Positions 39,424 through 64,000 of a stretch of 64,000 bases of DNA are shown here, one piece after another (positions within the stretch are counted from its first letter, which is position 1; each line of letters opens with the position of its first letter). This DNA comes from Callorhinchus milii. Lineage: Eukaryota. Below the pieces are notes generated by a model. It searched no databases, had not been told where the DNA came from, and was given only the letters and a program-made list of their open reading frames with translations. The DNA lies in assembly GCF_018977255.1 (NCBI RefSeq), contig NW_024704747.1:16678001-16742000 (forward strand), in the 5' to 3' direction. The position numbers were made by a program, and so were the translations under genes.

Positions 39424-40989
39424 TCAGGTGAGGAGCTGGTCTTTTAGGTCAGGGGAATCGATTATACCCAGAGATGCTGTCCTCTATGTCCGCTTAATCG
39501 TTCAGCACACTTTACCTCTCTCTCCTGACTTTTCTCTGGATTTTCTGTGTTTGCTCTCTCTTTGTTCCAGACTTCTGGAAGGAAATTGTAACTTATGTAA
39601 TACAGATGCTTTGCAGAGTTGACACTGGCAATCTGCTCGTTCAATTCTGCCTCGGCAGTGACGAGTATATTAATTGTTACTTTCATGTTGACGTATAAAT
39701 ATTTCTGGGTTATTTGAGGGGGGACGATGACGGAGTAATCCCTTCTAAAAATAGCCCTGTCATGATTGCTTTTTCTTAACCCTTCACCCACCCCGGGGAG
39801 ATGTCAAACTCAAATGTGGAACAATGTTGCCACCTCCTGGCACGACTCCAAAATTTTCAATTTTACTGGAGGAAAAAAATTGAAGGACAGGAACCAAAGA
39901 GCTCTCTCTCTCTCTCTCTCACGCTCACAAGCCTCCTTTTCCACCTCTCCCACCACCTCCACCACCCGCTCACAAAATACCTTTGCAATATGGTAATTTT
40001 CGACCACCTTGAGAGGGAAAGGGTTAAGTCAAGCCTGGCACACTCAGTAATTGAGGAAATCGTAGATCCCCAACTACATGATTGATTCTCTGTGGTTAAT
40101 GGCTTTCTTCTACCCCCAAAATTTACCACTTTATGATCGTGGCATTAACCCTTCAAGGACTGCGTAGCATTTTTTCTTATTTTGACGGGTTCTTCGAATG
40201 GGAGGTATATGGAGTGAGGGAGATTGTGTTTCTTTTCATCCTATTTTACATATACACAATCTCTCGGCTCAGGGAGCAAGTGAGGCCACGCAGCAGGGTC
40301 CAGGTTTGATACCTAGTCTGCAGTGGGGACCAGTGTAACCGGGGAGAAGAGGGGGAGGGGCGGGGGAACAGAGAGATATTAGTGCCACCTTCTCCTTGCT
40401 CTTCCCCTGCCTCATACCTCCCGCTCTAACTCTCTATCCCATTGCTCTCCGTGCTGCCTCTCATGAGCTTGTACGAGGCAACGCAAGGAGCAACGGGAAG
40501 AGAGCGGGTGGTAAAGGCTGTGCATATACCTAAAGGCCACCAGGGGGCGCATTTACCCCCCCCACCCACACACATGTTCCCAATTGCTGCTGCTACTGGT
40601 GAGAGGCTGGCATTAGCCGGGTTTGGGAAGCCGGCAGCCAGGGGTCCCCACTGCTAATCACTTTCCAGTGTATGTGCGTGGGAGTAAGCGTGGGGGGTGA
40701 GGACAGGATCAGCGGGCTCAGTTAATTGTCCTCAACGTTCCAATAATCTCCAATAATGGGGAACTGGAGAGAGGAGGGCATCGTTTCCACCCCCCCCACC
40801 CCTACATAGAGCTATACCCAGGGAACGATTAAGCACCTTCAGGAGAGAAGGTGGAGGAGGGAAGGGAAAGAAGAAAAAGTACAAATAAGAAAATTCACAG
40901 TCAAAAGCCACATTGGAAATTCAGAACTCAAAGGGTTAATTTGCACTGAATGGGTGTGGTGTCTTTACCTCTTCCAATGGTCCTTTTAG

Positions 40990-43900
40990 GCAAAACCCAG
41001 GAAATGGAGATGAGAAATGAGATTTTGGAGAATGTTGGGAGGAAAGGAGTCTTCCAGAATGCTGGAAATGATGCTGAACAGATGGAGAAGACTGGGGATG
41101 AGGAGGTGATAATGGATAATGTGGAAGGAAAGGAAAAGCAGACTGGCGGACACGAAAAGCAATGTGAGGACATGATTGGCACTGAGAAACCAACAGTCAG
41201 TGCTGCAGATAATGGAAACGTGGACCAGATAGGAAGCAAAGCCGCAGAAAATCTTGATGGAGAGCAAAATGCCTTTGGCGTTGGAATCAGTGAAGAAAAA
41301 GAGGTGTCTCAGGTGGTAAAGGTTGCGGACGACGTAGACATTGATGCAGGAGTGCAGATCTCTGCTAAAGCAGAGGAAAGTCAGAGAGCAATTGAAGTGA
41401 ATGATAGTCAGGCTCAAGGGAGGGGAAGCCTTAGTGATATTCACACAAGGGCGGATCAGTTTGATGGAGTGCACTTTGGAGGTACCGATTGCGAGATGGC
41501 AGAGGCAGTAGCCCCAGGGGTAGAGGATGAGTTGGGTGAGAATGTTGGGCGCGATGGAGACGGCAAATCAATAGCCCCAGAGGCAGAGGGTGAGTTGGGT
41601 GAAGATGTTGAAAGCGATGAAGATGGAAATAAGAGAACATTGGAAGAGGAAAGCAAGCAAATAGTAGATATCATTATAAAGCGGGCGGTAGAAATTGTGG
41701 AGCGGGAGATGGGCTTCAGTAATGTGCAGGAAGAGTTCCCAAAGGTAGAGGTTACTGAAGAGGAGACTGTCGACCAAATGCAAGGTGACCCCTCAGATGC
41801 AATGTGGGAAGAGGCTTGCGAATTAGTTTGTGACAAGGGGGATAGAGGGGATGAGATTATGAATGAGCAGTCCAGCATCAGTCATGTGGCTTCAGATAAC
41901 GCAGAGTTGAGCTCCGCATGCCTAGATGCTGAAAAACATCCAGGAAATCTTTATGAAAATGTAGATCTGGGAAGTGTGGAGGTAAACATGGTAGAACAAG
42001 GTCAAAGCGAACAGCCTGGGTCATGTCAGGAGACGACAGGCTCGATAGGTAATCAGTTGCAGGATGTATCTGAGAACGTGGGGAACAGAGAAGAGAGAGA
42101 ACAAGATCAGTTAGAGGAGAAAGACATCACACAGACATTAGTGAGAGAGAGGATTGACATTGAGCTAATAGCAGAAGAGGTGAAATCAGCCACTCATGGG
42201 GATCAGGGCAATAAGATCGAGAATAGTTTGCACAGAGAACAAGAGACAGAGACCTCAGCAGTCAAACAGAGGATTGGTCAGAATGAAGAGGACACTGGAC
42301 GTGCTGACCCGGAACAGGAGGTGGAGGCGGGAAGAGTGCGAAGGGCAGCAGACGATGACAAATTGATGCCCGCACAAAACAAAGAAACTGGTTCCCAGGA
42401 GAAATCCGATGAGACCCAGGAGATGTCCAGGCTGGGAGGCAGTGTGGAGCCTGGCTTTGTACAGGGCAGCCAGAATGAGACCATCATTGAAAGTGCAGCT
42501 AAAGGATCTGGAGTGGGTGAGGCAGAGACCAAGAGGCAGGATGTGAGCGAGATCAAGGCTGAGACCACAACCATGGAAGAGGATGAGTCTGGGATCAAAG
42601 GTGAGGTTAAGAGCCCTGGAGAGGATGAGGGTCAGGTGAGGACCGACCCAGAGGGGGAGGAACCTCGTTGTACAGACAAACAAGAGACTCTGGAGAAAAC
42701 AGTGAAGGAGACTGTTCTGGATGAAGGGGAGATAAAGGCTACTCAACCTGATTTTCACCACAGAGACGTTGTAGTGGAGGCTGAAGAGAAGGAAGAACTG
42801 AAGGAGAAGAGAGTGAGCGAGGTTGTACAGGGGGAACCGAACGACAGCGGGAAACACGACCGTGGCAAGAGTGAGGATGTTAATGAGCCGGAAAAGGTGA
42901 CCAAAGCTGCGGGTAATGTAAGTGCTGGCGAGAGACGCCCAGCGTTAGCTGGAGACGAGGAGGAGGCTGAAACAAGTAAAGATTCAGTTGTGCAAGAAAG
43001 TGTGGAGGTGGGAAATGGTGAAGCGGGACAGAGAGCTGAGATCAGTGACGAGGGTGAAGAGGCTCAGCTGAGGCTGCAGATGTCAGAGGTGGCCATGAAT
43101 GAGAAAGAGCCAGTGGCCAGAGGGGAAGAGGCGGGGGCCAGAGGGGAAGAGGCGGGGGCCGGAGGGGAAGAGGCCGGGGCCGGAGGGGAAGAGGCCGGGG
43201 CCGGAGGGGAAGAGGCCGGGGCCGGAGGGGAAGAGGCCGGGGCCGGAGGGGAAGAGGCCGGGGCCGGAGGGGAAGAGGCCGGGGCCGGAGGGGAAGAGGC
43301 CGGGGCCGGAGGGGAAGAGGCCGGGGCCGGAGGGGAAGAGGCGGGGGCCGGAGGGGAAGAGGCGGGGGCCGGAGGGGAAGAGGCGGGGGCCGGAGGGGAA
43401 GAGGCGGAGGCCGGAGGGGAAGAGGCGGGGGCCGGAGGGGAAGAGGCGGGGGCCGGAGGGGAAGAAGGGGGGCCGGAGGGGAAGAGGGGGGGCCGGAGGG
43501 GAAGAGGGGGGGGCCGGAGGGGAAGAAGGGGGGCCGGAGGGGAAGAAGGGGGGCCAGAGGGGAAGAAGGGGGGGCCAGAGGGGAAGAAGGGGGGGCCAGA
43601 GGGGAAGAAGGGGGGGCCAGAGGGGAAGAAGGGGGGGTCAGTGAGGAAGAGGCATTGGCCACAGGAGAAGAAGGTGAACAAGGGAAGCCCGAGTCCAACC
43701 AAGAAGCAGAGATGCTTCTGGACGAGAGCGGGCAGCCGGCCCTTCAGCAGAGCGTAGCGATATTGGAGGGTAGGTCAGAGCATGGAATGGAAACCGAGGA
43801 GGGTAAGAAAGGGGACAGCACGCAGGAGGAAGAAGCCAATACGGTGACGGATTCTCAGGAGAACAGCGAGAAACCACAAGAATGTCCAGGCAGTTCGGCA

Positions 43901-44368
43901 ACTCCGGAGGTCGAGGCAAAGCAGGAAGTGGGTGAGGAAAAAGATGGGTACATCAGGGAAGAGGTTCCGGCTAAATGGAACGAAGGAAAGAGAGAGATAT
44001 TGCAGGGAAAATCACATGGCAATGAACGGGATGACGTTGAAGAGCAGAAAGCGGCGCCTACTGAAAGCAACGAAGTGTGTGAGCCATTGGGCGGCCAGGA
44101 AGAGAATCCGCGGTCTGTAGTGGAGAGTAAACCCATCACAGTTAACCGGGCAGAGGAGGTGGAAGTGGTAGGAAGGGAGGAGGGAGAGGGAGGGAGTGAA
44201 GCTCAGGAAGCTAAGCAATTGAGTATTAGTGAGCAGCAAACCAACAACAACAATGGGGAAGAGCAGAGGGCAGAAGGTGGGGAACGTGAGGAGTCAAGTG
44301 AAATGTCACACAAATTCAAACCTGGTAAGGCAAAGAGAAAGAGTAAAGATGATTGTTTAATGTCCTGA
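40990..44368 (+). CDS. LRRFIP1: LRRFIP1 large acidic alternative terminal exon (GCF2/TRIP-type isoform), apparent frameshift within the VNTR
   Basis: ttttag acceptor, phase 1; starts (G)KTQEMEMRNEILENVGRK (human GRASEVEVKNEIVANVGKR) and ends KRKSKDDCLMS* (human KSKEDCTMS); ORFs 40950-43757 and 43655-44368 join if 4 G are restored in the repeat. Confidence 0.9.
43119..43639 (+). repeat. coding minisatellite, 25 units of ~21 bp (GGEEAGA/RGEEGGA)
   Basis: Unit GGAGGGGAAGAGGCCGGGGCC; 21 units are 21 bp and four are 20 bp. Confidence 0.95.
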
Positions 44369-51564: not shown

Positions 51565-51669
51565 ATAATTCGTCTTGAAAGTCAAGTGTTGCGCTACAAA
51601 GGTTCCGCAGAAAATGCAGAGAAAGTGGAAGATGATCTCAAGGCAGAAAAACGGAAACTCCAAAGAGAG
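51565..51669 (+). CDS. LRRFIP1: LRRFIP1 exon (IIRLESQVLRYKGSAENAEKVEDDLKAEKRKLQRE)
   Basis: Highly conserved; ttcag/gtaact; 105 bp. Confidence 0.97.
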
Positions 51670-52434
51670 GTAACTCTAATAATATATACAGTAATATCAC
51701 TGAGATTGGTGGACTTTCATTTTCAGTATATTCCTGTGCACATTCCAACGTGGTTTGACCAGCCGCCAAGTTGGAATCTGGTGTCTGAACGGCTTAATTA
51801 TTACTCACTGAAGAAGTGAAACGATGCTTTAAAAAAAGGCAAAGTATAGATCACACAGTGGTAACGTTCTGTGGGAGTATTCCAGCAAAATACCTACAAA
51901 ATACATAGTCGCTGTACTTTACAGTAAGTCTTCTGCAGCACTTTGAGATGTCCTCCCAACATGACAAGTGCTACATCAAATGTATGGATTATTAATACCT
52001 CCTTGAGTAACCCCCTCTCTCCTACAGTCTACAGCTGGTTATCACTTGCCCATCTCTTAATGCAGCTCCACATTATACTCTTTTCTGTGTGAGAGGTGCA
52101 CAGCGTAAAAATGGCACACAAGAAATTGAATATTTAAAAAAAAGACTCTTGACGCGCCTCTAGAAGTCCGCTTTGCTTCAGTTTGACCAGAATTCAGGAG
52201 ACCAGAGACTTGTGGCTCAATCTGTTAGCTTGTGAAAAAAAAGGCCCTAATAATCTTAAAAATCCTTAATTGGACCCTAATGGGTGTCTTTGGTTCCTTT
52301 AAGTCTCCTGCCCTCACCAGTCGCTTTCCCTGAATATTTTGTGCTTGCTGCTTCAGAAGTGTTCATCATGTGTATGCACATCCATGCAGACAAATACACA
52401 CATATGTGACTCTGGACTGCTTGTATCATGACAG

Positions 52435-52545
52435 GTACGTTCGGCACTGGATAAAATCGAAGAGCTGGAAATGAGCAACAGTCATCTGGTAAAGAGACTG
52501 GAGAAGAAGAAAGCCAACAGGAGTGCCCTGCTTTCTCAGCAGTAG
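52435..52545 (+). CDS. LRRFIP1: LRRFIP1 terminal coding exon ([36 protein letters not shown])
   Basis: Human [36 protein letters not shown]; gacag acceptor, TAG at 52543-52545. Confidence 0.96.
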
Positions 52546-54528
52546 CAGATTACTTCGACAATCCATGGCGCCCGTTGGATGCCTGCAGTGTAAACCTTAT
52601 AAAAGTTTCCACGAGACACTTCCCTGTACCACACACACACACATATGCACACCGCTGATGAGAAAAAACACATAAAATGGAGAAAAAACCACATAAAACG
52701 GAAAAAAGCACGCACGTTTTCCGACTAGCCACTTTTCACTCTTGTTTCTGAGACAGTTTCAAGTCGGGACCTCTGCCGGAGAGCATTTAGTCTAGGTGAT
52801 TTAGCTTAACTTTTAACAGGAAGTTCTCTCCTAAGCAGAGCACTGCTTTTTTTTGTTGTTTTAAATGTAGGTTAGCCGTTGTGCAGAGAGCACCGATTCA
52901 CTGCATCAAGTTACCGATTTTAAGCAGCAGTCTCTGAAGTCACTCCGAGCATATTATATTTATTTGTGGTGCAGGAAGGCTGGTCTGGTCTCGACAGGTA
53001 GAGGGATTGGGAGAGACCGTGCGTTTTGAACCCATCGATAATGTGGGTTGTGTCGTTGCTCTCCCCATAGTGTCCATATCTATTTTATATTCTTGCCACA
53101 TTTTGCCAAAGTTGTTTGGCTGGAAACCACAACTGATGTTTTTTGCTTCCGAAAGAATTTATTGGGATGCCTGAATCTCTTTGGAGAATCGGAACATTGA
53201 ATCGCATGAAATCTCCTGCCATCCAGATCGCCAGCGACTGGCTGCTCAGCGTGATGTCCCTTCCAACACTCGCGACACAATGACAGTGTTGAAGTCTATT
53301 TTAAAATGCTGCAATAATTGAGGATTGACTCAAAATTTAAAACATTGCTTTGAGCTTATTTATACAGGGGATTAGCAAATCGTTTCAGCTATTAAAATGA
53401 AAACCTACTTTGAGTGATGTTGTACAGACTAGGGTGGGGTGGTGTGGGTGGGAGGGTGCAAAGAGGGGGAGTGAGAGAGAATGCTGCTTCAAACTGTATT
53501 TTATATGGAAGGAAGAGTCGAGTAGTTTAAAAGAGTTTGCTCTTAACCTGTGAGAAACCTGTGGCAGAGGTGTGCTCCAGCAAATGATTGTGTTTCCACT
53601 ACAATGCACAATAGTAGGTGGTTGTCCTTGGGTTGGGGTAGGTAGAGGGATCTTAAGAAAGTAATGAAATTCAGGCTTTCACCAAAAAGATCTGATCATG
53701 TGCCATCCGCTAGGATTTGGGCTTGAGTTTAACTGGCATCACTACAAGGAATACATGGGAGGGGGGAATGGGGATACCAGGAGGGTACATGATGGGAGGA
53801 GGGGGCTGTTCGCTCTGGGATGCAGTGCCTGGCAGCAAGGCCCATTTCAGTGTTCGTTTCATTTGCCGGTTTACTTGACCTTAACCCGCTGAAGATTAAG
53901 TGCCATCAGCAGTACACTAGTTCACGAGGTAATATTTTCCAACCCCCTGGTAGAATGTCTCTGGTGACATTGCTGATCTTATCTACAAATCTTTGACTGA
54001 GCTAGAGATACAAATGCAACCAGACTTCTTGGTCTGAATACACGATCGGAAAGGTGAAAGTGTGTTCAAGTCAAGGTTGGGGTGGGGGGGGGTAAGGGCA
54101 CAATATTTTTTGATGCATTGAAAGTGAACAGGACTGCTCGTTCAATTTTAAAAAAATGAAGTTTTTTCCATAATGGAAAATGACAGCAGTAACGTTAAAA
54201 TGTTAAATAAAACAGGTCTTTGGAATGATTTAATATATGTACATACTGTAGCTTTTAAAGAAAGAATTACTTTTTTCACGCGTGTACGTGGCGGGTGTTC
54301 ACTCATGAACAGATTGCAGATCAGGCGACTTGCTGTTTGTTTTCCTTCTACAAGCATGTTAAGCTTTCAGCTTTAGGAAGAAGAGTTGACGGAGTTATTT
54401 CCTGTTTGGGTATTTCACTGGTTCATTGGATTTTTTTTAAGAATGAAGAGATTCCAGGGTGTGATCTGTTAAGTAACGGTTACTGCACACCACTGCTGTA
54501 TTAATGGTGCCACTACATTCTCAAAGGT

Positions 54529-56049: not shown

Positions 56050-56620
56050 GTGCAGCGCGAGGAACTCCCAAACTTCTGACTCAAGAGACCCAACACTGCC
56101 CTGGAGCGAGGCTGACCTGGTGCACGTGGAGAGGAGCACGTGGTGCTTCTGCCGCCCCAGACCCGCCCACTCACGGGGGCTCGTGACGCGCTTATGAGTG
56201 ACACCTCCGACCAAGCAGCATTGGCCGAGGTAAGTGGGGAGGGCGGGGCGTACCTGTGCCTGAGCCAATGAGGGTTGGCGAGTTGGGTCCCGCCCTCGCC
56301 TCGCCTCGCCCCGGGATCAGTCTGACTTCCGGCGGCGTGGCGGGCGGGTCTTCGCGCTCGAGGCGGCGGCGGAGCGACGCGACGCGAGGGCTCCAGGGGA
56401 TTGACGGTTACACAGCGGCTGTCGTGGAGGGCCGGGGACGGGGCCCATCAGCCCCCGCTTAGCGAGGAGGGATACTCCCGGTAAACTGTGAGGTTAACGG
56501 GGGGAGGATTGGAGGCAGACTCAGAGCAGGTTTGGGACACACGAGGGGCTGGTGAGGTTTGTAAGGAAAATGGCTGCCCTCAGTTTGACATAGCTTTGGG
56601 TGCCGGGCCCCCTGGGGAGG
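56050..56620 (+). promoter_or_regulatory. CpG-island promoter and probable non-coding first exon of RBM44
   Basis: High GC/CpG; GC box GGGCGGGG 56241, CCAAT 56265 (inverted ATTGG 56220), ETS site ACTTCCGG 56325-56332; donor CCG|GTAAAC at 56480 (also GAG|GTAAGT at 56229). Confidence 0.8.
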
Positions 56621-57674
56621 GCGCGGCAGAGGAGAAACCTCTGTAAATTTGCATTCAGATTACTAACCAACAGCCACAGCAACCTGGTTGTTAGTCGACT
56701 GGAGGAGCGCTTTTCTGGGGTAATAATTCCCCCCCCAAAAAATAATAATAATAATAAATTGGACACCCAATCCACGACTGTTTGTGGGAAACTGCTGTGT
56801 CCACTGCTTGGCTGCTGCGTTTCGCCCACAAGTTGTACAGTCAATTCACTTTACAGCATATTCCGTGAAGTGCTTTGAGACGTCTCAATGATGTGATAAG
56901 GTGTCATAATCAAATCAAGTATTATTATTATTGCCGATGCTTCACAGAAACGGGTTGTTCGACCGAACCTAACCTGTCTGAGCGTGGCAGCAAACTAGCA
57001 AATTGGCACATGGCAGCCCTTCATCAAAGGCTGTGAAGGGAACTTGTCTATCCGGGGGATTGTTGGCCAGGACACCGAGAGATATTTCCTTCTGTTTGCA
57101 AATCAGATAACGGGATCTTTAACACCCACCTAAACAAGCAAAGGGGACATTGGTTTGAAGCCTGATCTAATGGAATATCAACCTGGACTCTGTAAGCAAA
57201 GTCCTCGCATGGGACTTAAACACACAACATTCTGATTCAGAAACAAAAGTGTTACTAACTGAGCCAAGCTGACATGCTTTCAGAATGAATCTTTCTACTT
57301 TTTGTATAAATTGGACAAAGTCTCAGCATATAGCTATCAGTCTGTCTCTCGCCTCCGAGTCAGAAAGTTGTGGGTTCAACCCCTGCGTTAGGACTTTAAC
57401 TCTCCAGTGCAGTGCTGGAGGTGTGCCACATTGACGGAGCTGTCCTTCAGATGAGAGTTAAACTGAAGTTCTGTCTGCCTGTTCAGGTGGACGTTCAAGA
57501 ATCCATGGCACTATTTTGAAATTGAATGAAGTTTCTCTTGTGTGTTTTTAAATTATTAATCGTAAATTTTTGTATCCATCCCTAAAATGTTAACATTTTA
57601 ATTTCACAATGGAACTATTTCTAGCACTCAGCAGAATATAGTCTGAACCCTCAGAAGATTTACAGAAATTTGGA

Positions 57675-57694
57675 ATGTCTTCAGAACTCAACCA
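57675..57694 (+). CDS. RBM44: possible first coding part of RBM44 (MSSELN+CA) in an exon at ~57625-57694
   Basis: ttctag acceptor; CA|GTAGGT donor in phase 2 joins in frame to 58193 (MSSELNQSRMPTFY...). Confidence 0.4.
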
Positions 57695-58192
57695 GTAGGT
57701 ATATTCTGTGTAAAATAGCAGTAGTTATGGGAATTGGGACTATTTGTTTAAGAAGAACCTTGATAAAGAGGTTGCCTTATGAGGGCAGACACCTCTGACT
57801 TCAGGACTGCAAATGCCTAACTAGCATTTGTTATTCTTAAAAGTTAATAAGAGTAATCCATTCACCTTCTGTTTTGACTAAAATACACAGACTAGAAGAG
57901 CCACCAGAAGTTGGTGACCTTTTCCTTTTTCAGAAGTGTCTTGCCTAAAGTGGTTGTTCAAACCAAAGATCCCAGGTCACATCGGGCTAGAATTAATTAA
58001 TATTTTGATCTGATTAATATGCCTTCATCTCTGAGGGTTCTCTGAACTTAGTCAAAGCTAGTAATCTGGTCTGACTTCCCATTGCAATTTTTTCTATGTT
58101 GGAGAGAAGTTTTTTTTGTAGCTTTTCATGATAATGAGAGAACTGGTAAAGTTTGATAGCTCTATGTGTTTGTTTATCTTATTTCTACCTAG

Positions 58193-58323
58193 ATCAAGAA
58201 TGCCTACATTTTACTGTATTTGGCCTTGTGACAAGTGTGATTACTGCAACACTTTAGGTGTGCGGAAATGTAGGAATTGTGGTGAGCCATTGAAAGGGGC
58301 AGAGCAGCCTATGTATCTGGAAG
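58193..58323 (+). CDS. RBM44: RBM44 5' exon encoding a RanBP2-type zinc finger (MPTFYCIWPCDKCDYCNTLGVRKCRNCGEP...)
   Basis: Polypyrimidine tract plus cctag; ATG 58200; GAAG|GTAGGT phase-1 donor compatible with the 59938 acceptor; W-x-C-x2-C-x3-N-x6-C-x2-C. Confidence 0.75.
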
Positions 58324-58904
58324 GTAGGTGCGCTGAAATAACTGTCCTTGTAGAATCTAAAAGAAAGTCTTCAATTAACCAACTGTATTTTCATAGTGTC
58401 AACTCTCCTTTTTTCAGCCCATCCATTTTTTTATGTATCTCGAGATGTGGGCGACACTGGCAGGGCCACCATTTATTGTGTCTCCTTGGTATTCTGTTCA
58501 GTATTGATACTACCCTAAATGAATATGCCCTAATGCCACCTACCTTACTTATAACTAACTCCTTTTGCTTTCTGTTAATGATTATTAAGTGCTGGCCATA
58601 ATTATTTTACTTGCCTCATTGTGGCTTGTGGGTTTTTAAGTCAATGAAGGGAGCCTGGTGCTCATTTTGTCACATTTTGCCCCCGCTTGCAGAAAGCCAG
58701 TCAGCTGCTCCCACAAAGAACAGAATGGACTTACTTGTGCAAGTACGTTCGGTTGTGGATCAAGAGGTCGGCAAAATTCCATTATTGCAAAAATGGATAA
58801 CAAGATTTTCATGCTTTGAAATTGCAACATGTCAGGGTGCCTTATAGGCGAGACAAAGCTGTATTGAAGTGTGATAACAGTTTCCCTGTGTGGAAAACAT
58901 AGTG

Positions 58905-59205
58905 ATCGCTCGGGGCTCCGGCCTGCTTCATGTCCCCTGCCTTACCCGCCCCACCATTAGCAAGCGGGCCTTCAGCCTCTCTACCCCACCCTCTGGAAAT
59001 CCATCCTGCAATCTCTCTGCCTCGCTTCCTTCAAGACCCTCCTCTTCGACCATGCTTTTCAGTCGCCCTCCTACCCCTACCCGCTCTGCCCTCCACCACT
59101 CCTGATCCCAACCACCAACTTGGGTGCAGATGCCTGACTGTCCAGCACCTCGAAACGTCCTCCTGACGTGAAAGGTGCTATACAAATGTAATTTATTTTT
59201 GTTGT
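58905..59205 (+). mobile_element. L2 LINE 3' fragment
   Basis: GLLHVPCLTRPTISKRAFSLS followed by an L2 tail. Confidence 0.8.
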
Positions 59206-59360
59206 TGGATGGTTATATCATTCCCAGGTAATTCTTTTAAACTAGATGTCATCAGGATATTCATGTTTTAACAAAAATATTCAAAAGCTTACCAGGAAAT
59301 AAGAGAGAAAAAGAAGCTTTAAATGTTAAACATAATCATTTGTAACTCATTTTTAAATGG

Positions 59361-59673
59361 TAATAATAATAATAATCCTTGCATTTGATATAGCGCTTTT
59401 CACGTCTTCTATAAGTCTCAAAGTGCTTCACAGAATATACTGTAAAGTGAATTGACCATATATTTGTGGGCGAAATGCGGCAGCCAATTGCGCACAGCAG
59501 TGTCCCACAAACAGTCGTGGATTGAAAATGACCAATTTATTATTGTTTTTTTGGAGGGATTATTATTAGGCGTGTGGAGTGAGGAAACCTGCCCAAGGTT
59601 TCACCCTGCCTGGAATTGAACCCAGGTGTCTTGCTTGCAAGGCGAGTGCTCTAACCATTGAGCTACAGGACTC
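59361..59673 (-). mobile_element. full-length short-variant tRNA-SINE
   Basis: Very similar to 14151-14451; head GAGTCCTGTAGCTCA, (ATT)n tail. Confidence 0.85.
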
Positions 59674-59937
59674 AATTGCAATCAGATAAAGCTCTTTTGA
59701 CAAACTATACTGCTGTCCTCACAATCCTCTCACATAATTTGTTTCTTTGGAAGCACTTTGTTAAGTAAGTTCAGTGCTTAATATCACGTTATCCCATAAA
59801 TAATGAATAAAACAAAAACTAACGAGAGAAGTTTAGTGCAGGCCAAGCCCTGAACAGATTTTGAAGTTGAGTAGAAATGGGATTGTAGAATGTAAACATT
59901 TTATTTATTACACTAAAAAGTCTTGTGAATTTCCTAG

Positions 59938-61700
59938 ATAAGAATATGCTTGAAGCACACAACCAGAGAATCCTTACTTCTTGTCCAAAAGCAGCAAAAG
60001 GTCTCCTGTGCTTCACAACAACTAGAACTCCTTGTACTGTGAACCAGCTGATGGGTGGAGAGGGTGACTGTGCAAAATCCACCAAACAACTGTTTGACTA
60101 TGAAGACAGCATAAGCTCCCTTGATACAGGGTCCAAGATTCAGTTTAGCGAAGAAATCGTAAAGGCAAGCCTCGAGCTTTCAAAATCTTTGGACTCTGTT
60201 TATGAAGCAAATCAAGATGTGAAAGGAAATAGCACGTTTTCAGACCTTGAGCAAGGAAAATGTCTTGAAGTGGGGTTAGCAATGGAAATCTCACAAGAAA
60301 TGAATTTGTCCTTGGACACAGAGTTTGACATGTACAGAAAGCTGCATGTAATGTCACTAAAGCAGGCAGTTGGCAATGGCTGTTTTCAGGAGTGTAAAGG
60401 AGAACGTTTGCAACAGTACTTTCCAAAATGTAATGTTTCTGAGTCACTAGATGGTTTAGATCAGGAAACACTTCCTGATTATTGCAGCATGGACAGCACT
60501 GAAAATTACATTCGGTTCGATGACGACAATAATTTGCGGCATGAACAGATTTGCACTGAAATGCAAAATCCAACACCATTCTCTGACTTTCAGAATCCTG
60601 CAAATTTGAACTGTTATTCAGACTATCCTATTCGGGTCGAAGAAATAGATGAAGCCTCTTTTTTTTCTGCTGTCACTTCAGCGCAGAAATCATTTGTAAA
60701 TGAGGACAGTGCTTTTTCTATTCCTGCAGAAAGATCATCTGTAGAACCCTTTGTAGCCTGTAAATCATCAGGAAGCCCAGAGGTTGATGTTGAAAATAAT
60801 GTGATCGATCATTGCAGGACTGACCTCGATAAATCAATTGACATTCAGACTGAGCTCTTATTACCAGATTGCACTACTCCAAGTCAACATTATATTCCTT
60901 GTCAAATAGAGGAATTTGCTAATGACCACTTTGACGGTGCGACACCAACAAATGCTGAATTAAATGTAAGAGCTGACATTTTCGTCCCTAGCACATTTTC
61001 AAAAGCTGAGAATTGCATACAAAGTGAAAATGACTCAAAACAAAGCAACAGTTGGGCACAATATAGTATATTGTCTACGTATGGAACTATAGATGACTCC
61101 TGTGAATCCGCTGTACTTGACACTGAGGTCTCAAGAGATGCAGATCAGCTGAAATTATTTGAAGACTCATTTGTGTCAGCTGCTGGTGATAGCATAGTCT
61201 TCGGTTCAGAACTCAACTGTGATGCAACTAGCCACATGAATGACCTCTGTATACCATTAACTATGACTGGAGGCAATAATAAATCTGTCAATTGTGAATA
61301 CCAGACATCAGAATTTATAACTGGAGATGGCACTTTAACTGAAGAAATTTCTGTTGGCACCAAAGTGAAACATGCTTACTGTTCCAGCACAGATATTATC
61401 AAAATAGACCAGGGTATTGATGCCTGTACTGACTTTCGAGTTAATTTTACCATAGACAAAGCCACTATGGCCAAGAGTTCTGTAATTAACAAAGCTGAGA
61501 ACACAGATATAACTTTGATGAGCAAAAATAGACCAACTCTAGGTCAAAGTGGAACATGCAGGAGTGTTGCTTGTAACACTAAGTGGTCTACTATTGCATT
61601 TTCTGCGAAAGCACAAAATACCCAGACAACTGAGATTGGTACAGAGGAGAAATGCACCAATACTATCTTGCAGACAACTGATTTAAATTCATACTTAAAG
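59938..61700 (+). CDS. RBM44: RBM44 large exon
   Basis: 1763-bp open exon (ttcctag / AAG|GTACAG); IDQGIDACTDFRVNFT...ENTDITLMSKNRP...RSVACNTKWS matches RBM44 (human INQTVDVSTDFRACFT...NTEITMMNKKRP...KSVACSTDWS); synteny with LRRFIP1. Confidence 0.9.
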
Positions 61701-62405
61701 GTACAGTAACATTTGTAATGTGCAGTACTAGATACTTTGGGTTAATGTCTAGTTTTTCCTGGCAAAGTAATACATGTAACTAGCAAAATCAGAAGGAATA
61801 TTTTGGCTTGAGACTTCTTAGTTTTGAAATCCAGTGTGTTTCCAGCATTTGTGCCTTCAAGAGTCTATCTTCTCATCAGCTCCCAGTTTTGTTTCTGATG
61901 TTCCAATCATAGCTGTGTCCTCCAATGGTAATCTCATTTGATGCTTGGGGCTCAGTGAGATGAGATTGCGAGTTGACTGATTCCTTCCTCCTGAGTCCAG
62001 AGAGATAGATGATGGCCATTGTGCTCCTCCTATTGCTGAATCACCTGAGATCAGCTAACTAGGAAGAGACTGATCATTCAGTTCATCTCTAGGCTGAGCA
62101 TTGCATACAGCAACTTGCGTTTATATAGCACCTTGCACATGGGGTAGTATTTTGGAGCACTTACTGAACTGAATCACTGAGGAGCCCAGGGAATGCTTTG
62201 AAAGAACTGAAGATGTCTGCTCTGGAGGAGAAACAGGCTGTTTGTGCCTGCTTAAAATCTGCTAAAGGGTCATGTGCCCCAGTGGTTTCCTAATTTGGGT
62301 AGCCATTATCTCGTGGTATGTGATACTCCCACGTTTGAAGAATAATGCCGAATACTGATACTCAAACAATGCTTCCCTTGTTCTATATTATTTGTCTTCA
62401 TGCAG

Positions 62406-62485
62406 GAATTGGATGCTAATAGATATAAAACCAAATTGAAGAAAGCCCTGGATGAACTTGCAGAGCTGAAGAAAAAATATAAGAG
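62406..62485 (+). CDS. RBM44: RBM44 exon (ELDANRYKTKLKKALDELAELKKKYK+AG)
   Basis: tgcag/gtattg; phase 0 start and phase 2 end fit both neighbours; coiled-coil-like. Confidence 0.8.
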
Positions 62486-63809
62486 GTATTGTTAACTCTG
62501 CAGTAAATTGTTAGATTAATAACTCGTTTAAATGCATTCTAATAAGTCATATATACTTGAATGAGAAATTTGTATTTAAAATGACCAGATGAAATTTGGG
62601 AAGTTTAAAAAGCTTTTTAATTAGTATTAAGTTAGGTTACTAACCTATTAAAATCAACAGCTAATGTAACTTTCCAGCACTTCTCCCTGAACTTGTACTC
62701 TTTCCATCCACTCCAAGCTTCTTTGCCAACTAAACATCACTTCCTGAGACACCCCTTTCTACAAAAATACAAAAAACAATTTGCATTTCTATAGCACCCT
62801 TTATGCAGGGTAGCGTCTCGGAGCACTTAATAATAATCATTGACTTCTTCAGAAATCTAGAAATGTTTCCTACTCCTAATCTCTGACCCCTGATCTTATT
62901 GGAGTCTAGTTGGTCTTACTAATGCCTACTTATTTGATTGGCATCCAATGAGCTGGGCTTAATGGAATTTGAGCTCCCTATTATTCAGTAGAGCGAAATT
63001 GCTGACTTGGGTCTGGGTTATTATACCCCATGCCCTTGCTGAGGAGGTCACAAGTGATGTATTTTATAGTGTCCAAAAGCCAAGGAGGATTTGGGTGCAT
63101 TCCCAGACTCAGATATTCAAACATATTTCTCAAAGACAGTATGCTCTAAGACCGTCACTCTTCAAAAACACTGTGTGCCCTTGAGGTTGACCTCTAGGAC
63201 TCTTGTTTCCATCAAACCCCTGGTAGAGGGAGATAGTGTTGTCATTTTTAAATAATGGATAAATGCTATTGGTAAAAAGCATGCTGTGCTTAGGATCTTT
63301 TTGCCATATGCACCTTATGCTTTCAGTATCTGCAGAGATACTTTTGTCACTTATCATTTGTTCCTTCAAAGTGTATTTGATAGCCTATTTAGCCTTCCTC
63401 TGTACTGTAAATGTCTATGGTTCTATATACATTTCCACAATCAGATGGAAAAAGATAGTTCCCAAACTGGTCCAAAGTGAATGACCCCATTCTGGGATGC
63501 ACACAGCTCTTCTGTCCGATAATGTCCTCTTCTCTTGACTGTACTGTTTCTCACTTTCTTTCTAATGACGATGTTCAGTCCCAACCTCTGTGGGTTATTG
63601 CTCATTTACTATATAGGGACGTTTGTGAGTTACGTTCCTGCTTTTGGTTGAAGAAAAGTTAACATTAGAAATGCAGCAGGATCTGCATCAAACTGCCTGC
63701 AATTAATATTTTCCCCTCAGTTTAGTTGTTCAAACAATGCAAAGAGTACCTTAATCAAAATGCAGATCAGAGTCCAGTTTCTAAATGTTTTTTCACACTG
63801 TATTTAAAG

Positions 63810-64000
63810 TATAGAGCTGCAGGAACAACATCCTCTTTCTGGTACCAAGGATGTAAGTCATCCATCCAGCTGCTGCAGCAAAATGAAACAGAGGGCTATA
63901 AAGGCTGAATTGCAACTATTGAACATGCAGTATTGGATGTGTCAGCAGCATTGCTGGAAAATTCATAGCCTTACTATTGAGGAAAGTGCCTTTAGTGATT
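63810..64000 (+). CDS. RBM44: RBM44 exon, runs off the window (..[34 protein letters not shown]..)
   Basis: Matches human [28 protein letters not shown]; aag acceptor in phase 2. Confidence 0.9.

Follow-up and report, generated by a model that had tools for sequence, protein, structure and literature searches.

An exon for a predicted RanBP2-type zinc finger, spliced into RBM44 of Callorhinchus milii and likely ancestral to jawed vertebrates

The stretch analysed here (the window) comprises 64,000 nucleotides of Callorhinchus milii contig NW_024704747.1 and ends inside a gene of the RBM44 family, whose features are collected in Table 1. A query from 61371-61700 detects the database protein P0002 together with ten RBM44-named proteins from sharks and rays (E 4e-63 to 4e-25), and the C-terminal half of one shark or ray RBM44 retrieves the turtle, marsupial, sturgeon and coelacanth proteins; by sequence, the host gene is an RBM44 orthologue, as a preliminary description of this DNA had proposed. 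The upstream neighbor is a gene that resembles LRRFIP1. Its last coding exons (51565-51669 and 52420-52546) lie about 3.8 kb 5' of the first RBM44 exon, and its long acidic exon (40950-44368) contains a tandem repeat near 43100-43600 across which the open frame shifts (ORFs 40950-43757 and 43103-44368), which suggests an assembly indel or a length polymorphism. The placement of RBM44 downstream of the LRRFIP1-like gene fits the synteny given in excerpts of the mouse RBM44 paper (PMC3045441).

Table 1. Features of the RBM44 portion of the window (window coordinates)
Feature	Position	Strand	Remarks
First RNA-supported RBM44 exon	56342..56480	+	Non-coding, without ATG; X1 and X3 contigs join 56480 to 57625
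Second exon	57625..57694	+	In-frame stop 57639-57641; likely start ATG 57675-57677; joined to 58193 in X1, X2 and X3
Zinc-finger exon	58193..58323	+	AG before 58193, GT after 58323; phase 1 donor; database model's ATG at 58200
RanBP2-type C4 signature WPCDKCDYCNTLGVRKCRNC	58221..58280	+	Sole six-frame match in the window
Intron, 1614 nt	58324..59937	+	GT..AG; interspersed repeats; skipped by X1, X2 and X3 contigs
Long RBM44 exon, 1763 nt	59938..61700	+	Acidic/Ser-rich, poorly conserved linker; conserved block near the end
Following RBM44 exon	62406..62485	+	Helical/coiled region; joints 61700>62406 and 62485>63810 in X1, X2 and X3
RBM44 exon with conserved helical core	63810..64000	+	Gene runs past the window end

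Beyond the window, P0002 carries an RRM at residues 921-986, about 880 residues from the finger, and a TTC3_9th domain at 1081-1128. The latter is above the Pfam cut-off (31.5 bits); RRM_1 scores 18.6 bits, slightly under its 20.7-bit cut-off, and is over the cut-off in nine of ten sharks and rays. A canonical RNP1 motif carries aromatic residues. These are missing from the RRM (P0002 921-986) of cartilaginous fishes and of teleosts, and are present as Tyr and Phe in turtles and marsupials; RNA binding by the fish RRM may be non-canonical. The TTC3_9th block (P0002 1081-1128) is the most conserved of the protein, and presumably recalls a CUE-like helical pattern.

Four sequencing runs (X1 to X4) were placed on 56100-64000 as assembled contigs; their label, "RNA?", is a guess, and none is RNA on record. 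X1 and X3 belong to one study (P1) and X2 to another (P2), and the tissue is off record. Several GT..AG introns are skipped by these contigs: 57695-58192, 58324-59937, 61701-62405 and 62486-63809 in X1, X2 and X3, and the GT..AG intron between 56480 and 57625 in X1 and X3. The splice from the finger exon to 59938, a phase 1 joint into the 1.76-kb exon that the preliminary description had predicted and named as a check, is thus present in contigs of three of the four runs (X1, X2, X3), from both studies. X4 has no coverage of the finger exon or of these joints, and says nothing about exon skipping. The predicted exon start at 58200 was slightly off, since the exon begins at 58193. The 5' end of the first exon is where a contig ends rather than a mapped transcription start. 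In X1 and X2 the contigs are three bases short at 59977, and the long exon also has several single-base differences; these are likely alleles.

The start codon likewise needs revision. The frame 58200-58322 translates as MPTFYCIWPCDKCDYCNTLGVRKCRNCGEPLKGAEQPMYLE, and P0002 (1140 aa), which starts at 58200, shows no mismatch with the translation of the joined exons (719 of 719 residues). Along the spliced transcript, the first ATG encountered is at 57675, in frame and adding nine residues ahead of 58200; from there the exons stay open for 728 codons to the window end. The second exon's product aligns both to the shark N-terminus (tblastn with residues 3-20 of shark P0003, 72% identity, E 0.001) and to the bony-fish linker preceding the finger. 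Translation likely begins at ATG 57675, not 58200. The Met at this ATG is an internal, conserved Met in bony fishes, and a Met stands 16-20 residues ahead of the first Cys in 38 of 47 finger-bearing proteins (isoforms counted). Sharks start slightly further upstream, at the position of the C. milii in-frame stop: within 57639-57677 the in-frame TAG sits at the shark start, with shark Met-Gln aligned to Ile-stop. This slightly longer shark-type start has likely been lost in C. milii.

The exon encodes an exact match to the RanBP2 signature, W-X-C-X(2,4)-C-X3-N-X6-C-X2-C in the cited portions of PMC12383448 and PMC7154859. The match at 58221-58280 is the only one in a six-frame translation of the window (127,996 residues), for which residue frequencies would give an expectation of 0.0005. 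The Pfam scan proposed in the preliminary description was unrewarding: Zn_ribbon_RanBP (PF00641, 27-bit cut-off) does not match the window exon at E up to 5, matches two of 12 family rows weakly (best E 0.039), gives about 10 bits in coelacanth, P0070 and P0100, and reaches its cut-off in no member. Pfam assigns the window exon Zn_ribbon_3 at E 0.064. Its best PDB sequence matches are the RBM10 finger (E 0.0019), the TAB3 NZF (0.05) and the Npl4 NZF (0.08), with archaeal eL40 interspersed; with the family profile as query, archaeal eL40 fingers come slightly ahead of RanBP2 fingers.

The AlphaFold2 model of the finger (mean pLDDT 74.5; 85-88 over residues 11-30) consists of two orthogonal hairpins, each contributing two Cys, and superposes on the fingers of Nup153, RanBP2 and Trabid (0.5-0.8 A across 24-26 residues). 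In VIA-align the top 15 rows are all RanBP2/NZF-family fingers (Z 2.8-4.0); Foldseek returned nothing for the model at E 0.001. An ESM Atlas query with the window finger gave a lead, two weak clusters (0.76-0.77) in which one third of the members have Zn_ribbon_RanBP, and one with the sturgeon helix plus finger gave no usable match. Small finger models are weak evidence because random peptides of this size also receive confident AlphaFold folds, according to the cited part of PMC12383448. With the signature and the predicted fold in agreement, the model suggests a domain that likely folds as a RanBP2/NZF finger, its four Cys presumably coordinating zinc. The window exon has two extra Cys, at residues 6 and 16.

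Among 11 named shark and ray models, seven have the full signature, Narcine lacks the Trp and Pristis the fourth Cys; the remaining two start downstream of the finger region. The full signature also occurs in coelacanth, sturgeon and paddlefish and in five further proteins (P0068, P0070, P0100, P0103 and P0121). A sturgeon N-terminus query gave 26 ray-finned proteins, many of them salmonid isoforms, of which two have the full signature, 22 have four Cys without the Trp and Asn, and two are broken; gar and non-neoteleost teleosts retain the four cysteines alone. The finger was found in none of 16 amniote RBM44 models, ten of them from turtles and six from marsupials. The absence from mammals claimed earlier holds for the six marsupial models, and the cited part of the mouse paper names the RRM as the single main motif (PMC3045441).

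A profile of the N-terminal module, which detects only proteins retaining part of that module, was run over 1.84 billion representatives and gave 116 matches. These include no recognisable lamprey or invertebrate RBM44, which leaves the family without an outgroup and is not proof of absence; their tail holds repeat-rich zinc-ribbon proteins and P0152. A tree was built from 61 proteins chosen from 114 assigned to RBM44, over 346 columns in four C-terminal blocks (P0068, which lacks these blocks, stands outside it). The elasmobranch clade (support 100) excludes C. milii. P0070, P0100 and P0103 belong to a clade with long branches (100), likely amphibian to judge from the tree, beside turtles and marsupials (93), with four finger-less proteins nested inside it (99); P0121 groups with marsupials weakly (72). 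One teleost clade (98), next to the salmonids, consists of 19 proteins that have no finger; to judge from the tree they are likely neoteleosts.

Because the full signature recurs in cartilaginous fishes, sturgeon and paddlefish, coelacanth and tetrapod-side proteins, the finger is likely ancestral to jawed vertebrates on this sequence evidence. Of the two origins left open earlier, ancestral or lineage-specific, the shared finger of sharks, sturgeon and coelacanth supports the first and tells against a lineage-specific gain. The simplest reading would be one ancestral finger that relaxed in neopterygians and disappeared on three or more occasions; it is lost or degraded in the amniote models, the 19-protein teleost clade, the four-protein tetrapod-side subclade and bowfin. 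That the finger arose in cartilaginous fishes, or is a chance motif in a mis-predicted exon, has in its favor that Pfam cut-offs are unreached and that amniote models have no finger. This can be set aside as highly improbable: spliced contigs cover the exon, its position, linker and spacing are identical in sturgeon, coelacanth and teleosts, and the chance expectation of the motif is minute. The contigs, the distribution across taxa and a 12-row alignment together refute it.

That alignment, which runs from sharks to teleosts, shows all four Cys invariant, along with the Thr and Tyr of the preceding PTFY. Constraint is not absolute, because the Trp and Asn are gone in gar and teleosts, the fourth Cys in Pristis and the Trp in Narcine; the Cys/Trp conservation on which the preliminary description had staked its case survives for the cysteines of the alignment and fails for the Trp in these lineages. 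Identity over the finger exon is 66-73% against nine sharks and rays, and 49% against both sturgeon and coelacanth. Among the nine elasmobranchs the next 480 residues are 25-45% identical and the RRM 61-68%. The exon equals the RRM in conservation here and ranks in the 99th percentile among P0002's 41-residue windows; against sturgeon and coelacanth the RRM falls to 36% and 42%. Y/F at position 14 and L/F at position 18 are kept in all 15 chondrichthyan and sarcopterygian-side fingers. The linker motif is present in 49 of 53 RBM44 proteins with a finger and in none of 61 without one, although the tests differed between the two sets. These figures bear on a further alternative, that the finger does little by itself and survives as a structural relic whose decay has run at different speeds. 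Its repeated loss or degradation in the four groups named above would suit a relic, as would the fertility of RBM44-null mice (PMC3045441, in part). Exon conservation equal to that of the RRM among cartilaginous fishes and cysteines invariant from sharks to salmonids run against it, and we regard it as improbable.

In bony fishes the finger does not stand alone. A wHTH_TTC3 winged helix lies just ahead of it in sturgeon, paddlefish, gar, teleosts, coelacanth and tetrapod-side proteins, and TTC3_9th ends the protein; the helix spans residues 54-113 of P0016 and 151-227 of paddlefish P0032. It gives no score in cartilaginous fish, turtle or marsupial models, and no remnant was found in the window, where the best score is 2.8 bits against 38-126 in coelacanth and sturgeon. 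The neoteleost-like proteins and some frog-like ones have lost the finger and still have the helix. The earlier statement that RBM44 starts with the finger is thus apt for cartilaginous fishes and not for bony fishes. Cartilaginous fishes have likely lost the winged helix, their proteins now beginning close to, or exactly at, the conserved Met that precedes the linker; in amniotes finger and winged helix have likely both gone.

In the predicted model of P0032 the helix (pLDDT 86-98 over 151-220) and the finger are each modeled confidently, with a low-confidence link between them. Compared with 48,161 chains, the winged helix of P0032 best fits Egalitarian, at Z 9.3 (rmsd 2.0 A over 74 aligned; the sole Z of 8 or more), followed by the TDRD5 LOTUS domain (Z 7.8, 2.4 A, 71 aligned), cullin (7.4 and 7.3), Tejas (6.9) and TDRD7 (6.7). 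Foldseek also ranks Egalitarian first, with E 0.32, and returned nothing at E 0.001. When the family profile was searched against PDB sequences, neither a LOTUS nor an Egl chain came up; Pfam WH_Egal is weak (E 0.0088 in one of 12 rows), wHTH_TTC3 being the better Pfam match. By structural comparison of the model, the bony-fish winged helix has a LOTUS-like fold. Among the matches, P0152 (2012 aa) has seven Egalitarian-type winged helices, a wHTH_TTC3 match and a C-terminal SpoIIIAA-like ATPase, and by sequence links the Egalitarian-type and wHTH_TTC3 families.

What the finger binds is addressed first by the established codes of its fold. RNA contacts of ZRANB2 in the portion of PMC6384913 cited are D4, N14, W17, R19, R20 and N24. 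The window finger has I, Y, T, G, V and R there, none of the six; 32 of 34 tabulated fingers likewise have none and two have one. The RNA-binding fingers of ZRANB2, FUS/EWS, RBM5/RBM10 and TEX13A share the signature spacing and predicted fold with RBM44, and differ in these contacts. With the finger about 880 residues from the RRM, there is also no adjacent RRM-finger unit of the RBM5/10 kind. The ssRNA-binding role that the preliminary description had implied accordingly loses its basis in that code.

A different RNA code is a tentative alternative, with the finger and its basic linker acting alongside the winged helix and the distant RRM to select germline mRNAs. Most species have a basic finger and linker (with net charges of +3 to +7 in neopterygians), which fits RNA binding too; the neighboring winged helix resembles Egalitarian domains, binders of stem-loop minor grooves in the cited part of PMC13186709; eL40 ribosomal fingers match the family profile as well as RanBP2 fingers do; and a shark and teleost RRM without the usual RNP1 aromatics makes a helper domain plausible. 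Against it stand the missing contacts and a net charge over the finger and 12 upstream residues of 0 in C. milii and -1 to +3 on the sarcopterygian side, and a finger without R19/R20 failed to bind RNA (PMC6384913, in part).

The ubiquitin code fits no better. Ubiquitin binding by NZFs needs Thr-Phe directly after the second Cys (PMC12383448, in the section cited). At this site C. milii has Asp-Tyr, most sharks Ser-Tyr and coelacanth Gly-Phe, and Thr13 occurs in none of the 34 fingers; the implied ubiquitin-binding role thus lacks the support of the NZF threonine. Ubiquitin-binding NZFs also have a hydrophobic residue before the last Cys, where the window finger has Asn; this position, 25, is polar in all 17 non-neopterygian fingers. 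The finger shares with the NZFs of Npl4, TAB2/3, Trabid and HOIL-1L the fold (0.5-0.7 A over 23-25 residues), the terminal position and an aromatic at 14. A divergent NZF binding ubiquitin or ubiquitin chains is conceivable, given two domains that RBM44 shares with the TTC3 ubiquitin-ligase family. TTC3 and DZIP3 are paralogous RING ligases. Like TTC3-type proteins, RBM44 has a C-terminal TTC3_9th (PF24905), to which bony fishes add an N-terminal wHTH_TTC3 (PF24812); unlike them it has an RRM and a finger, and a RING was found by Pfam in no RBM44 protein scanned. The aromatic at position 14 in 15 of 15 basal fingers would further suit ubiquitin, and the Npl4 and TAB2 NZFs stand first and second in the structural comparison, level with the other rows. 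That aromatic is lost in sturgeon, paddlefish and neopterygians, and ZC4H2, also without Thr-Phe, did not bind ubiquitin (PMC12383448, in part). We consider ubiquitin doubtful, and less probable than RNA by another code. Nor does the finger have the features of the Ran-binding nucleoporins, in which Leu-Val follows the second Cys and the fingers come in tandem arrays; it has Asp-Tyr there and is a single copy.

Protein docking is the reading we favor over both, mainly because the known RNA and ubiquitin codes are excluded, although our confidence that it outranks them is only middling. We hold with comparable reserve, at about an even balance, that the finger is a spliced-in, ancestral module of predicted RanBP2/NZF fold that docks a protein for germ-cell RNA-protein assemblies. 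The RBM44 finger would tie the protein to a partner in such assemblies through a surface made of the preceding LNKSRRPTFY stretch, the aromatic at position 14 and the large hydrophobic residue at 18; in bony fishes this surface would follow an Egalitarian/LOTUS-like winged helix. Germ-cell expression in C. milii is carried over by analogy from mouse, where RBM44 binds itself and TEX14 (PMC3045441, in part). As mouse RBM44 is located at intercellular bridges and TEX14-bound with no described finger, bridge targeting there cannot need the finger.

A more ambitious reading joins the winged helix to this scheme. Egl domains bind in the minor grooves of RNA stem-loops and also bind BicD (PMC13186709, in part), and Iwamori et al. 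put RBM44 forward as a shuttle that carries RNA through bridges (PMC3045441, in part). Ancestral RBM44 could have been a vertebrate counterpart of Drosophila Egalitarian, with winged helix and finger selecting mRNA structures and coupling them to bridge transport, later stripped stepwise; the helix would have gone in cartilaginous fishes, the finger in neoteleosts and some frogs, and both in amniotes. We think this unlikely as it stands. The paddlefish winged helix does fit Egl best and TDRD5 next within the Egl/LOTUS group (TDRD5, TDRD7, Tejas, MARF1, Oskar), but it differs in being 18% identical and present in one copy rather than three, cullin helices reach Z 7.4, and a shared fold shows no function. 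The parallel is a lead, and C. milii has no such domain. If true, the reading would account for the fertile mouse knockout, and RBM44 would be expected to be indispensable in the germ lines of fishes and amphibians.

Set against mouse and human RBM44, the fish proteins share orthology (through the named shark, turtle and marsupial RBM44), the long linker, the helical core and one RRM, and they add the finger, with bony fishes adding the winged helix as well. The mouse study, which used 5' RACE, gives the RRM as the single main motif, and the word "zinc" is absent from its text (PMC3045441). No RBM44 zinc-finger architecture appeared among the literature titles and abstract openings listed, a search with subscription journals outside its scope; no paper paired RBM44 with LOTUS, and nothing on architecture paired it with TTC3 or DZIP3. 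The joined RBM44 protein is already present in public gene models, and automatic pattern annotation of the motif in shark entries may well exist.

With gene and fold both known, the gain is a correction of domain architecture with a testable germline hypothesis, and no new system. Knowledge of RBM44 comes from a single mouse study, and the cited part of a 2026 review calls what it does at germ-cell bridges poorly understood (PMC13216642). Should mammals carry a reduced form of the protein, little can be concluded from the fertile knockout about the original role of the gene, and zebrafish-side teleosts, sturgeon and amphibians would be the places to test function. The finger itself seems to be a variant of the RanBP2 fold that has none of the three known binding codes and has been kept across jawed vertebrates; its ligand would extend the known range of that fold.
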